A DNA stretch of 64,000 bases from sequence record AY692264.1; one strand, 5' to 3'. The translations under genes were made by a program, and so were the position numbers. The stretch comes from Escherichia phage T5. A model generated the notes under the pieces. It was not told where the DNA came from. It saw only the letters and a program-made list of their open reading frames with translations, and did not search any database. Positions 8,954-40,189 of this stretch are shown one piece after another. Each line of letters opens with the position of its first letter. Within the stretch, counting starts at the first letter, position 1.

Positions 8954-9157
8954 ATGAGCAATAAAATTATTGTGACCAAAACTACCACAATGGTAGACGT
9001 TTTTTATGTGCCCGATACGCCGGAGAATCGGGGAGCGGTCGAGCGGGGCGAGTATGATAGCGTTATTTATGATGCCGATGGTTATTATCAGCATTTGGTC
9101 GATTCCTACGGGGAAGAGGAGAAGATCACGCATCGATTACCCGAGGGGGATTTATGA
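8954..9157 (+). CDS. hypothetical protein
   Basis: 67 aa ORF. Confidence 0.4.
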   Translation: MSNKIIVTKTTTMVDVFYVPDTPENRGAVERGEYDSVIYDADGYYQHLVDSYGEEEKITHRLPEGDL

Positions 9158-9272
9158 AACGATGGTTTAATCACTGGTATAAACGGTTTTTAGTACGGCA
9201 TCGCAAGTCTAGACAGCAAGATGATTGGCGGGAAATGGCAAAGCGTAACAATTGCCCACTTCTCTGATAACC

Positions 9273-9297
9273 GACGGGGATCAGCTCCCCGTTTTTC
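9273..9297 (+). terminator. rho-independent terminator
   Basis: ACGGGGA-loop-TCCCCGT hairpin followed by TTTTTC. Confidence 0.6.
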
Positions 9298-9410
9298 ACG
9301 CCTCCAGTTAAATCCCCCTTTGTTTTAGTATCCCCATCAAAATTAAACGCGTTAGAATGCGATCTAGGACGTTTTAGGCATATATTAGAATTATTCACTG
9401 CGTAGGAATA

Positions 9411-9515
9411 CTGTATAAATATACAGTAGGATAACCTGGGGATAAGTCTGTTGATAACGCTTCAAAATGGCTAGGATTTTGTCAAGGCGAATCGTGCTGT
9501 TGATAAGTCTGTGGA
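9411..9515. repeat. DnaA-box-containing repeats, right copies
   Basis: CTGTATAAATATACAG at 9411-9426; GATAAGTCTGT(T/G)GATAAC at 9441-9458 and 9493-9510; TGTGGATAA DnaA box at 9507-9515. Confidence 0.6.
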
Positions 9516-9547
9516 TAACTTAAATAACAGTGTTTCTCACTTCCGTT

Positions 9548-9730
9548 TTTAAATACGAATCATTATCATTCGTATTCCGCTTTTTAAATGAGAATCATTC
9601 CGCTTTTTAAATGAGAATCATTTCACTTCCTGAATAGTTCTCATTCCCTTTCTTAAATGAGAATCATTATCATTTGCATTTCACTTTTTAAATGAGATTG
9701 ATTCTCATTATCATTCGCATTCAGGCGAGC
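9548..9730. repeat. direct repeats of about 19 bp (TTTTTAAATGAGAATCATT), about 5 copies
   Basis: seen directly; irregular 22-43 bp spacing; no regular spacer structure. Confidence 0.6.
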
Positions 9731-9749
9731 AGGGCAATTGCCCTGCGCT

Positions 9750-10500
9750 TTTGTGCAAATCCGACATTTGCCCCCATGGATTACGCGTGGGCGTGTATGT
9801 GCAAATCCGACAATTTTTGGTAGTGTGCGAATCCGACCCGAAAAATTTTTATAGTGTGCAAATCCGACAATGAATTTTCCCAAAAACTCCAGCAATCACG
9901 AACTGCGTTCGAATCCTGTGGAATTAGCTAGAGTATGTGCAAATCCGACATGTGTTGAGATGTGCGAATCCGACAAGATTTTTGTGACTTCGATGGGAGG
10001 GTGTGTGATTGTATGGGTTTGAGGGGAAGATGAGAGAGCGAGAGAAATTTGGGAGGCTAGAAGGATATGGGCGCAGGATTGGTGCGGAGCACCTGATTTG
10101 CGGGGATTTTGGGGAAGAGTTGAGATAATTTGGGAAGATTTGAGATAGGTGCAGAAAAAGTAAAATTTTATTAGCTAAAGGGGGCAAAATAGCTTGACAA
10201 GTGAAAATTTCTGTGGTTCTAAAAACTCAGGCAATCATGGGCCTTCGGCCCGAAATAATGCTGCTATTTTCAGGAGAGTAAGAGTTCCTAAAAACTTAGG
10301 CGTTTGTGCAAATCCGACCATAAATTTCTAGAAACACAATGTGCAAATCCGACAGTAATTTCTGGAAATGTGTTTTCAAAAAATGTCTTCTAGAAATAAC
10401 CGCCCTCCCTATAACCGCCCTGTATTAAACCGCCTATTGCTGGAGTTTCTAGGAACATGAAAACTGCCCTAGAGTATGTGCAAATCCGATGAATATTTTT
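9750..10500. repeat. array of about 9 copies of 14-bp motif TGTGC(A/G)AATCCGAC, all same orientation
   Basis: copies near 9754, 9795, 9822, 9853, 9938, 9961, 10303, 10331, 10478; extra copy inside ORF at about 12151. Confidence 0.65.
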
Positions 10501-10850
10501 GTGTGATCCCTAGAATTTATACTTATCAATTTCCTAGAAACTCAGGAGTCTAGAAGAAAGTGTTGTGCCATCCTAGCAGATGAGCGGCAACAGGTGTATC
10601 ATCTTGAATGTAAATTATATGGTCAAAAGTTTTACTTTTATTTTAAATATAAGATCCCCCAGGGTTCTCATATAGAGCTTTGCCCCCGCCAGAAGGTCTC
10701 GTGATGTTTCTAGTAATTTATATTAAATTACTTATTAACTTGTCCTATCGCTCCGTATCCTCCGCTACAAGTTAGTAATTTTAAATTACTGAACCACCAC
10801 ACCTTCTGTGTGGCAACTCTAAATGGTTAATTCTATTAACTCATAGAGTT

Positions 10851-10879
10851 ATGATAACATACATTTAGCTATCTGTCAA
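10851..10879 (-). promoter_or_regulatory. sigma70 promoter (TTGACA-17-TATCAT) firing into noncoding repeat region
   Basis: minus-strand read TTGACAGATAGCTAAATGTATGTTATCAT; no ORF over 20 aa downstream for several hundred bp. Confidence 0.5.
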
Positions 10880-10935: not shown

Positions 10936-11820
10936 TTATAATAATTCTTGGTATGCTTTTTGATACGCCTCAGTATCTGTAGGTGTATCTTTTGCTAACG
11001 CAATTAGTTCATCTGTTATCTGAACATTCGTACTATAACGTTGGTGGAACTCTTCTGGGATTTCTAGGTATCTATTTATGAACGCTGCAGCAAGCGGTGT
11101 AACTAACCCAATTTCTAGGGATAACTTAACTTGTTTCTCATAAATTAAATACTGAGAATCAGATGGGATTGGTGGGGTTACATCAACTTTTTCTGGTTCT
11201 TTTTCTGGAAGCAATGGATTGTTATACAATGCTTCATCTGGAAGCACAGATTTACGCTCTTTAAATATATAAGTTTCTAGATCCGATGCTTTAGATCCTG
11301 AGTAAACAGCGAAGATGCTAGCTTTACCTTGTGATGCCCTAACTGGTAAATAGTTAGTTGGGTAACTCCTTAATGCATCATGGAATGGACTTCCTGAGTA
11401 TTTGTATGTATCCCCATAGAGATCATCAATATTCATTCGTTCATCTTCAAAGATATGGAAAGAGCTAAATGATGGGATGGTGAAGTATTCCATCTGTAAC
11501 CCATAAACTAAGAAACGATGTGCATATGCGCTAATCTTTAAGACTGTGAATGCTTTCTCACCTTCTTTATAAGAATTGCCCTTTGAAGTAACTTGATAAC
11601 GCTTACAAAACATCTCTACTAAACGTTTCTCATTAATATTGAGTGAGGAATATAAACGTCCATTTAGCCCTAGAAGGGCATCAAACATAAATGCTAACTT
11701 ATCTTTTTCTTCTTGAGACAGTTCTGGAAATGGTAATACTTTGGCATTAGGAACATTATTGTTCTCTTTAGGTTTTGTTTTACCAGCATTTTGTCTTAGT
11801 TTATCTTTAAAGTTATACAT
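10936..11820 (-). CDS. hypothetical protein
   Basis: 294 aa ORF. Confidence 0.55.
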   Translation of the reverse strand: MYNFKDKLRQNAGKTKPKENNNVPNAKVLPFPELSQEEKDKLAFMFDALLGLNGRLYSSLNINEKRLVEMFCKRYQVTSKGNSYKEGEKAFTVLKISAYAHRFLVYGLQMEYFTIPSFSSFHIFEDERMNIDDLYGDTYKYSGSPFHDALRSYPTNYLPVRASQGKASIFAVYSGSKASDLETYIFKERKSVLPDEALYNNPLLPEKEPEKVDVTPPIPSDSQYLIYEKQVKLSLEIGLVTPLAAAFINRYLEIPEEFHQRYSTNVQITDELIALAKDTPTDTEAYQKAYQELL

Positions 11821-11901: not shown

Positions 11902-12510
11902 TTAATCCTTTTTATTCTCATTAATAACAGCTCCTAGTGCTTCAAGGATAGTATCATTTATACTCCCAGGCCTAAGATTATTAAAGTGAGTAACATAGAT
12001 GGGACTTTTAAAACCTTCAGTATCCACAGGTGCTACGCTTTTCATGTCAGATTCAAAAGCTTCTTGAGTATGTTTCAATTGTGCAGAAGGTCCATAATCT
12101 TCACCAACTCGATATGAGGAATTATTTTCTATAACGCCACCGCATGGAACATTGTGCAAATCCGACGTTATTTTAGGACTGTTCCACATTGTAATTGGCC
12201 CCGATTGCCACGGATCTCGAATAGTCACAGGAGTACTAGGACGGTTAACCTCAGTCTTCACAAGCTTATAACCAGCATCGATTAGTGTATTAATTAGATT
12301 ATCAGCGGGAATACGAGCCTTGCCAAAAATCTTACGAGCGTTGTTGAGCCTACCTTCAAAATCTTTACATGCTTTAATATTAGTGTGTGCAAAGGTTAGC
12401 TTCATAGATTTGAACTGTACGGTAGCAGTTAAATCTTTAAAAGCATAATCCCACGTATTCAGTTCATGATCTGGTACTACTTGAATAGATTGCTGTGCAT
12501 ATAAAGTCAT
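11902..12510 (-). CDS. hypothetical protein
   Basis: 202 aa ORF; contains one copy of the 14-bp motif. Confidence 0.5.
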   Translation of the reverse strand: MTLYAQQSIQVVPDHELNTWDYAFKDLTATVQFKSMKLTFAHTNIKACKDFEGRLNNARKIFGKARIPADNLINTLIDAGYKLVKTEVNRPSTPVTIRDPWQSGPITMWNSPKITSDLHNVPCGGVIENNSSYRVGEDYGPSAQLKHTQEAFESDMKSVAPVDTEGFKSPIYVTHFNNLRPGSINDTILEALGAVINENKKD

Positions 12511-21765: not shown

Positions 21766-22518
21766 TTATCCAACTAGTGGTTCTAGCTCTAAGTCACAGA
21801 AGTTATACATTTCTAGTTTAAGGTTATTGATACCATCGAATTTATTAACTAATTCGTGAGTGATATATTTTGCAGGAATACCACTTTCAGATGGATGATC
21901 TGATTTAATAGTGAACTTCTGCTCAGCGGGCACTACATTTACTAGTAAAGAATCCATATCTAAATGGTTCGTCTCTCTGAGTAACTCTCCTTCATTGGGG
22001 AATCTCACATCTGTTATTACGGCGACATCTGGGTCGTCTTTAGCGATGGATTGCTCCAGAATTATGAGCCAAATGCGTTCATGTACCAGCTGCCTTCCTA
22101 GCTCCGTTCCTACGAGCTGTAACATTTTTCTCGGAGAAATAAATAAACTATAAAGTCCGTCTTCTTTATTCTCTGAGATAAGTTGTTGAGGATTAAGATA
22201 TTTTTCCTCAAAAATCGGCCAAACGTACGAGAAGTCTTCAAACTTATCGATACCGTATTTAAACCATACGTCTCTAGCTCGCTCCAATTGAGATTGTGTG
22301 ACCGTAAACCATTGGTCAATCTCTTTCCCCCTGCGCTCTCCTAGAAACTCTGGAGTTACGCCGAGGATTACGGATGCAAGTTCATAAACGGGCTTAGCAA
22401 AACTGTAACGACGGGATAAACACGTTGGATACGTGTCATTACACCAATCGATAATTAATTTTGCAACGGTATCTTTTCCCGAACCAGCTTCACCATGTAA
22501 ACCGACTAATACTGACAT
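21766..22518 (-). CDS. dnk: deoxynucleoside monophosphate kinase
   Basis: 250 aa, Walker A GEAGSGKDT at N-terminus. Confidence 0.6.
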   Translation of the reverse strand: MSVLVGLHGEAGSGKDTVAKLIIDWCNDTYPTCLSRRYSFAKPVYELASVILGVTPEFLGERRGKEIDQWFTVTQSQLERARDVWFKYGIDKFEDFSYVWPIFEEKYLNPQQLISENKEDGLYSLFISPRKMLQLVGTELGRQLVHERIWLIILEQSIAKDDPDVAVITDVRFPNEGELLRETNHLDMDSLLVNVVPAEQKFTIKSDHPSESGIPAKYITHELVNKFDGINNLKLEMYNFCDLELEPLVG

Positions 22519-39656: not shown

Positions 39657-40189
39657 TAATAAGTAACCAATTCCTGTACAAATCGCAGGCTGTTATCACT
39701 GTTTGCGCCAACTGCATAGACTAATCGAGTGGATTCATAGTTATAATCCAGTATCATACTATCTAGGTGTGTATCTGCTTCTAGTTTCTGCTCGCTAAAG
39801 ATTGTAGATACAAAAGCACTTTCAATATGCCCATGTTGGTACATTTCTAGAAGAAGATTAGCTCCACCTAGAACTACTGTTTGCTGATCTTTTAGAAAAG
39901 TAGGTAATGTATCACCTATCATTGATATGGGAGTGTAAATATCGTGTGTAATATCATCTGGCAGTGGACGATCAGCACGAATAAATAGGTCAGAAGCCCC
40001 AATCATACGTTCCCTAACGGCATATGGAAGAGCTAAATAAGTACCTGCCCCAATAATAATATTATCAGGATTTAGTACATCTAATTGTGAATAAAAAGCA
40101 TCTAGTTCTTCTTTAAAAGAACCCCAGGGAAGCTTACCTCGGAGGCCGAACTCCCCATTCGGCCCAACTGCATACATTGCTGTAATCAT
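39656..40189 (-). CDS. frd: dihydrofolate reductase
   Basis: 177 aa; N-terminal MI-A-AV-G...LPW motif; follows thyA as in T5. Confidence 0.65.
   Translation of the reverse strand: MITAMYAVGPNGEFGLRGKLPWGSFKEELDAFYSQLDVLNPDNIIIGAGTYLALPYAVRERMIGASDLFIRADRPLPDDITHDIYTPISMIGDTLPTFLKDQQTVVLGGANLLLEMYQHGHIESAFVSTIFSEQKLEADTHLDSMILDYNYESTRLVYAVGANSDNSLRFVQELVTY

Follow-up and report, generated by a model that had tools for sequence, protein, structure and literature searches.

The window analysed here, a 64,000-nucleotide stretch of the Escherichia phage T5 genome (AY692264.1), contains a non-coding tract of approximately 1.78 kb at the junction of the pre-early and early regions: no CDS is annotated from T5.017 (which ends at 9157) to T5.018 (which ends at 10936). 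Within this tract is an array of short direct repeats. An earlier note on this DNA had described about nine copies of a 14-bp motif at the junction, co-oriented and irregularly spaced, in a tract without a credible open reading frame. Copy number, orientation, spacing and position are all borne out, and the annotation agrees with the note's judgement on coding capacity, although the 1.5 kb given for the tract is slightly short.

A scan of the window for TGTGC(A/G)AATCCGAC gave nine exact matches and one copy with a single mismatch, all of them on the + strand. The exact matches (TGTGCRAATCCGAC) start at 9752, 9798, 9824, 9855, 9936, 9961, 10305, 10340 and 12153, and the mismatched copy (…CCGAT) starts at 10477. 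Start-to-start spacings are irregular (46, 26, 31, 81, 25, 344, 35 and 137 bp), with gaps of 11 to 330 bp between the 14-bp units. The last of the exact matches, at 12153-12166, is the extra copy that the note had placed at about 12151, inside the open reading frame 11902-12510. Chance expectation was estimated with 100 dinucleotide-preserving shuffles, and the motif was absent from all of them. The complete T5 genome (121,750 bp), put together from the window and two further stretches, was then scanned: the only further copies are the six duplicated in the right terminal repeat and two one-mismatch copies, in tandem, in gene D13 (78935 and 78950). There are no - strand copies in the complete 121,750-bp genome, in which the 8-mer AATCCGAC is confined to motif copies. 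Scatter at chance level, which the earlier note had named as the pattern that would count against it, was not seen; the motif is confined to this locus.

The repeats correspond to a catalogued element, the annotated direct repeat D (DRD) of T5 'Repeat Region 3'. The features 'direct repeat D copy 1-10' of AY587007 are all ten of the window copies, AY587007 coordinates being those of the window minus 80, and the 1.6 kb around the array is 99.9% identical to AY543070/NC_005859 at the same coordinates, which makes the window the left-hand 64 kb of T5. Davison (bioRxiv 10.1101/866236) names these repeats DRD and gives them no function, describes the region as highly conserved among 25 T5-like phages and centres the model on the DnaA boxes. 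The exact motif string had no match in the literature searched. From left to right, the tract and its surroundings contain the following features:

9430-9520, + strand: DnaA-box pairs (left context)
9540-9720, + strand: AT-rich AAATGAGAATCATT repeats (left context)
Between the AT-rich AAATGAGAATCATT repeats and DRD copy 1: hairpin, beside the CCTGCGC nick site
9745-9749, - strand: major single-strand interruption (the 7.9 %/99.6 % nick) at CCTGCGC/T, cut between 9748 and 9749
9752-9974, + strand: DRD cluster I, the first six copies (9752 to 9961)
9975-10195, + strand: 220-bp tract rich in G and poor in C (37% G, 7% C), separating cluster I from the repeat end
10194-10219, + strand: TTGACA-N(11-12)-CTGTGGYTC element, at the last base of which the terminal repeat ends
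Between the repeat end and cluster II: hairpin GGGCCTTCGGCCC
10305-10490, + strand: DRD cluster II, three copies (10305, 10340 and, with one mismatch, 10477), in unique DNA 86-270 bp right of the repeat end
10398-10436: three AACCGCC(C)T repeats, placed after cluster II in the order of the module
10851-10879, - strand: strong leftward sigma-70-type promoter (predicted), TTGACA-17-TATCAT with TG, at the right edge of the tract and aimed at the array
12153-12166, + strand: isolated DRD copy 10, antisense within the early gene T5.019

The DnaA-box pairs and AT-rich AAATGAGAATCATT repeats (9430-9720) make up the classical region of the injection stop signal. DRD copy 1 is 3 bp right of the 7.9 %/99.6 % nick site. 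As cluster I is inside the left terminal repeat, a second copy of it lies 245-467 bp from the right physical end of virion DNA. The G-rich bias of the 9975-10195 tract is also found in GZ8, My1, DU_PP_V and phiR2-01 and is weaker in Slocum; at the right genome end, this tract makes the 3'-ending strand G-rich. A leftward transcript of the tract would be C-rich and G-poor, and as predicted from its composition looks like a Rho loading site. Approximately 350 bp of poorly conserved DNA separates the AACCGCC(C)T repeats, which recur at an equivalent place in GZ8, My1, DU_PP_V and Slocum, from the leftward promoter.

Conservation of DRD and position of the terminal-repeat end

In the annotation of AY543070, the left terminal repeat of T5 (10,219 bp) ends at 10219. 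This end lies at TTGACAAGTGAAAATTTCTGTGGTTC, right of the G-rich tract and between the two clusters: relative to it, cluster I spans -467 to -245 and cluster II +86 to +270. The earlier note had proposed, without choosing among them, a role in the stop of two-step DNA transfer, in the terminal-repeat boundary or in packaging; a tie to the repeat boundary is borne out by position, and each of the three roles is a candidate one.

The same arrangement is found in ten genomes with annotated or deposited ends (T5, phiR2-01, GZ8, Slocum, My1 and a further five contigs that were deposited with both ends), in which the repeat ends between the clusters at a conserved TTGACA…CTGTGGYTC, after the final C. 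The ends read …CTGTGGTTC in T5, …TTGTGGCTC in phiR2-01 (mapped from 2x read coverage) and …CTGTGGCTC in GZ8; that of Slocum is a PhageTerm call two bases earlier than the conserved site, and My1 has a similar TTGACA-proximal site. A sequence recognized by terminase is expected at or flanking the site where ends are generated, and the DRD clusters are so placed in these ten genomes. At least one DRD copy is present on each side of the repeat end in every enterobacterial lineage examined, with 1 to 8 copies per cluster. The exception is Vibrio phage phi 3, where the annotated repeat end is inside a 107-bp duplicated part of the array; its placement may be imprecise.

The two repeat ends of AY543070 differ, the left reading …GTGGTTC (window 10217) and the right …GTGGCTC (genome 121748), where relatives have C; the two terminal repeats are therefore not strictly identical at their very end. 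No DRD array is present at the left boundary of the repeat. Repeats of another family, with CGGAAnnAnnGCGGGAG-type units and a period of approximately 10-21 bp, lie at 111253-111424 of the T5 genome (L004, 2254-2425) and overlap the CDS T5.162. The right terminal repeat starts at 111532, with these units 100-280 bp to its left. These may be the counterpart array at that other repeat boundary.

IMG/VR was scanned for the exact 14-mer, and multi-copy loci were found in T5-like contigs only (approximately 96-123 kb); single matches elsewhere in IMG/VR are at chance level for a database of that size. In approximately 30 T5-like contigs, the number, orientation and spacing of DRD copies are as in T5. 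Among close relatives, the block 9400-10430 is about 90% conserved (0.90 for motif columns and 0.80 for other columns), and because the whole block is conserved, comparison of these relatives does not set the motif apart. The 12-bp core GTGCAAATCCGA is also kept in seven divergent lineages of the Demerecviridae (Tequintavirus, Epseptimavirus phiR2-01, Sugarlandvirus GZ8, My1, DU_PP_V, Slocum and Vibrio phi 3), with flanks that are 52-54% identical or unalignable. Phages carrying the motif include Klebsiella phage GZ8, contig L114, Yersinia phage phiR2-01, Pectobacterium phages My1 and DU_PP_V and Serratia phage Slocum. Vibrio cholerae phage phi 3 has 12 copies in the form GTGCAAAACCGAT, and Vibrio phage VCPH has a more diverged version (AGTGCGAAATCTA / AGTGCGGATTCTA). 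The consensus of the 64 copies from the seven lineages is a-T-GTGC(A/g)AA(T/a)CCGA(C/T)(A/g), in which nine positions are nearly invariant. The loss of positional conservation that the earlier note had allowed for did not appear: place, orientation and number are kept both in the approximately 30 T5-like contigs and in the seven divergent lineages. DRD is an asymmetric, polar element of 12-16 bp, and its two-cluster layout around the repeat end is kept across the Demerecviridae. All arguments from position share one main confounder, the synteny of the module as a whole.

The copy in T5.019, a - strand gene, overlaps the codons TCG GAT TTG CAC AAT GTT. When T5 was compared with 16 T5.019 homologues (down to 50% amino-acid identity), third positions were invariant in 5 of these 6 codons, as against 27% of codons across the gene (approximately p = 0.007 for a pre-specified window). 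The sole frequent change within the motif, TTG to ATG, recreates TGTGCATATCCGAC, which is a variant found among the array copies of GZ8. Since the third positions are invariant and the tolerated change is itself an array variant, the T5.019 copy seems to be selected as a nucleic-acid element. Synonymous conservation of the D13 copies is uninformative, as D13 is 95-99% identical among close relatives; in My1 and DU_PP_V, D13 carries no motif copy, and the two in T5 (78935 and 78950) are probably incidental.

Candidate binding proteins and readings of the array

The conservation and polarity of the DRD copies suggest that they are recognized by a sequence-specific DNA-binding protein, itself conserved and encoded by the phage. 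To our knowledge, none of the Enterobacterales consensus sites (IHF, Fis, the dif/XerC arm, Ter, KOPS and Chi) matches the motif. T5.156 (107934-108416) matches the PHROG 'terminase small subunit' (E = 6.5e-91) and A2 matches the PHROG 'DNA binding protein'. The small terminase subunit (TerS) is conserved family-wide, particularly across its first 100 residues (41-52% identity in phages of Klebsiella, Proteus and Vibrio), as is A2 (36-66% identity in Vibrio, Proteus and Klebsiella phages). These two proteins diverge to a similar degree. Covariation does not choose between them as binders, because the motif itself is nearly constant. Pfam gave no match for A2, TerS, T5.018, T5.019 or A1, and a PDB sequence search gave none for A2 or TerS.

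We tentatively favour the array as a candidate recognition site for TerS (T5.156), at which the right-end cut would be made and packaging would start, a choice made with the balance of probability still against it. TerS would bind clusters I and II of replicated concatemers, placing the large subunit to cut after TTGACA…CTGTGGYTC, and would then remain on the cluster I side, which is the right genome end; by last-in-first-out reasoning, this end would be packaged first. The same terminase complex would also produce, incidentally, the GCGC nick located 3 bp from copy 1, and cluster I in the left repeat would be a passenger of the repeat duplication. Terminase recognition is placed first because it alone explains both the position of the end between the clusters and the copy kept on each side, and because it has close precedents (SPP1 pacL/pacR, P1 pac and lambda cosB) and a lead from sciB to the nick. 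The genes sciA and sciB are needed for single-chain interruptions (PMC3517423), and the start of the T5.156 ORF is labelled 'putative sciB' in GenBank M62847 (1991), a label also present in one Salmonella phage record. Should this label be correct, nicking would be a function of terminase, in keeping with the conserved GCGC nick that lies beside copy 1.

A number of points weigh against terminase recognition. Because the whole non-coding module (1.6 kb) keeps its synteny in every lineage, adjacency to the repeat end could reflect descent and not function. With clusters 86-470 bp from the cut, the layout is broader than that of most pac or cos sites described, and the conserved copy 1.9 kb away in T5.019 is left unexplained. 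At the left repeat boundary there is a different repeat family instead of a DRD array, and in Vibrio phi 3 the annotated repeat end is inside the array, not between clusters. The packaging direction of T5 is itself inferred (one paper states the opposite), and the 'sciB' label is only a putative annotation from 1991.

A broader proposal, which we consider doubtful as a whole, would make DRD a family-wide, polar docking array that sets the right end of the 10-kb repeat, directs the 7.9 %/99.6 % nick through a TerS identical to SciB and is crossed by a host-polymerase promoter as at the T7 junction; or, equally novel, would make it the A2 target that restarts second-step transfer.

Taken separately, A2 is ranked second as the binder, behind TerS, and we think it unlikely to be the answer. 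DRD copies would be bound by the pre-early protein A2 (with A1), releasing a block or ratcheting second-step transfer, and the later copies (cluster II and T5.019) would be met as DNA enters. Relative to the annotated injection stop signal (9140-10149), the array is within it or immediately to its right, and it is also right of the shear point, estimated near 9.7 kb; strict polarity of the motif fits a fixed direction of DNA entry, and the extra copy (12.15 kb) comes later in the order of entry. A2, conserved across the family as noted above, is essential for second-step transfer and binds DNA, with no known target. Its AlphaFold2 model (pLDDT 85, pTM 0.48) has a predicted N-terminal four-helix HTH-like domain, a basic linker (KPRKVGGG…RKAHYVR) that is invariant and a helical C-terminal domain; the HTH-like domain and linker could suit an asymmetric site, and A2 could conceivably read such a site as a monomer. 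This domain assignment is weak, as a fold search gave no significant match (best E = 0.75) and only weak partial matches to small HTH domains. Moreover, should the first-step DNA end near 9.7 kb, A2 would be made before the array reaches the cytoplasm. Binding by A2 requires neither a repeat end between the clusters nor a copy on each side of it, and cluster I is duplicated at the extreme right end, where a restart is not needed. Some small part of the probability, less than that given to A2, belongs to readings other than the five weighed here, a host factor included.

It is improbable, in our estimate, that the motif acts at the level of RNA, with a predicted leftward transcript, running through cluster II, the repeat boundary and cluster I, and the T5.019 mRNA carrying GUCGGAUUUGCACA repeats that bind or titrate an RNA-binding factor, or with transcription of the junction aiding concatemer processing. 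The evidence for such a role begins with the leftward promoter, which is aimed at the array and outscores every other sigma-70 match of the tract in six of the seven lineages scanned; the seventh, Slocum, has an equivalent site. The TG-extended -10 and the array-facing direction are found in all seven. Equivalents of the T5 promoter are at the following positions:

L126, 4381-4410: equivalent of the leftward promoter
L127, 4138-4166: equivalent of the leftward promoter
L075, 3131-3159: equivalent of the leftward promoter
L158, 4817-4845: equivalent of the leftward promoter
L159, 4407-4435: equivalent of the leftward promoter
L114, 11142-11170: equivalent of the leftward promoter

All ten copies, that in T5.019 included, have the same sense relative to leftward transcription, and the D13 copies, which are of opposite sense, are those missing from My1 and DU_PP_V. 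The first ~360 nt of the predicted transcript, immediately after the promoter, fold better than any of 100 shuffles (z = -3.5). Against an RNA-level role, cluster I has no structure signal on either strand (z = -0.33 and +0.92) and Rfam has no match at E < 0.4, results that also led us to reject a structured or known non-coding RNA. Twelve contiguous conserved positions are more typical of a DNA site than of a protein-binding motif in RNA, and the putative Rho-loading-like RNA over 10200-9975 would stop transcription before cluster I. The promoter itself may drive a non-coding RNA or transcription that crosses the junction. It sits downstream of the last early gene and is annotated in neither T5 record.

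Still less probable is that the repeats are iterons of a replication or repeat-duplication origin, bound by an initiator. DnaA boxes (9430-9520), AT-rich repeats (9540-9720) and direct repeats (9752-9974) do follow one another in the order seen in P1 oriR or pSC101. The spacing of the repeats within the cluster, however, is irregular (25-81 bp) and unphased, unlike the usual two helical turns, and there is no adjacent initiator gene, T5.018 and T5.019 being without a Pfam match. These grounds speak against replication-origin iterons, despite the DnaA boxes and AT-rich repeats. According to work cited by Davison, T5 origins are near the genome centre by electron microscopy and the replication genes are absent in first-step transfer.

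The least probable of the five, and by our estimate very improbable, is that DRD copies serve solely as specificity determinants of the T5 nicking system and guide the nickase to GCGC. Three base pairs separate copy 1 from the 7.9 %/99.6 % nick, and a GCGC nick site is kept beside copy 1 in GZ8, L114, Slocum and phiR2-01. The nick consensus alone is reported to be insufficient for site choice, and the D13 pair, at 64.83% of the genome, nearly coincides with the nick measured at 64.8%. However, none of the nine remaining array copies has an adjoining GCGC; the consensus sites at 18.35% and 64.54% have no DRD nearby, by which a nickase guide for all nicks is rejected; My1 and DU_PP_V keep the array and lack GCGC beside copy 1; and the nicks are dispensable while the array is strongly conserved.

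Two further identities were rejected outright. A CRISPR array, which the earlier note had already discounted for want of regular spacers, is ruled out by the unit (14 bp as against 24-48 bp), the gaps of 11 to 330 bp and the context, that of a lytic phage; the only Rfam CRISPR match is outside the array and far below threshold. The reverse complement of the 5' half of the motif (ATTTGCACA) is one mismatch from a DnaA box (TTWTNCACA), but the conserved positions do not fit: invariant positions extend through CCGA, outside any box, the base pairing with the final A of the box is T in only 40 of the 64 copies, and the free N position of the box is an invariant C/G in the motif.

Relation to other systems

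In the pac sites of SPP1 (pacL-pacC-pacR) and P1 (TGATCA/G hexamers, in four and three copies), repeats bound by terminase flank the cut; these boxes, to which the small terminase or pacase binds, set off a polar series of packaging events. The T5 array is analogous to these in that short repeated boxes would likewise stand on both sides of an end-generating cut. It differs in that T5 has exact ends, a 10-kb direct repeat and no headful packaging, in that its clusters span about 740 bp as against 160-270 bp in the SPP1 and P1 sites, and in that TerS binding in T5 is a prediction. The concatemer junction of T7 has flanking arrays of short repeats (SRL/SRR), transcription-dependent processing and pausing of T7 RNA polymerase. 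At the R-sites of lambda cosB and at the T7 junction, as in T5, repeats adjoin the end-generating site, and T7 resembles T5 further in its exact direct terminal repeats and a promoter across the junction (predicted in T5). The motifs and proteins of lambda and T7 are different, the T7 repeats being 7-bp units and its terminal repeat 160 bp, and T5 uses the host RNA polymerase, unlike T7. The iterons of P1 oriR, pSC101 and RK2 oriV resemble the T5 array in being co-oriented direct repeats beside DnaA boxes and an AT-rich region; T5 departs from them in its irregular spacing, the absence of an adjacent initiator gene and origins mapped elsewhere (in the literature cited by Davison).

The element and its ten copies are the same as those catalogued in AY587007 and by Davison (bioRxiv 10.1101/866236). 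The parts of these two sources that were available make no mention of clusters flanking the exact repeat end, of a reach into Sugarlandvirus, Mccorquodalevirinae and Vibrio phages, of synonymous-site constraint in T5.019 or of a conserved leftward promoter. What is added to a catalogued element is a sharpened, testable hypothesis with two named candidate binders, rather than a discovery.

Three questions about T5 date from the 1960s-70s: how injection stops and restarts, how the exact 10-kb terminal repeats arise and why the DNA is nicked. Papers from 2026 still describe the mechanism of second-step transfer as poorly understood. All three processes come together in the 1.8-kb non-coding module, of which DRD is the most sharply defined, family-wide and strictly polar element. 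With a 12-bp core and TerS (T5.156) and A2 as candidate binders, a 'region rich in repeats' is turned into simple questions of binding and mutagenesis; if the proposal is true, DRD would be a cis element that ties together the choice of repeat end, the major nick and junction transcription.

Several smaller observations concern the surrounding DNA. The interruption annotated at 39746-39747 in AY543070 is not at the GCGC consensus, unlike those at 9748, 22336 and 78573, and another consensus nick site in the nicked orientation is present at 107517 (88.3%). In Vibrio phi 3, CTAGAA-type repeats (ATGCTAGAAGTGA, 7 copies) follow the array. A TTCCTAGAAACTCAGG-like motif occurs around the T5 array (9876-9897, 10218-10236, 10285-10300 and 10531-10548) and also at 22337-22355, directly beside the 18.35% GCGC nick site.
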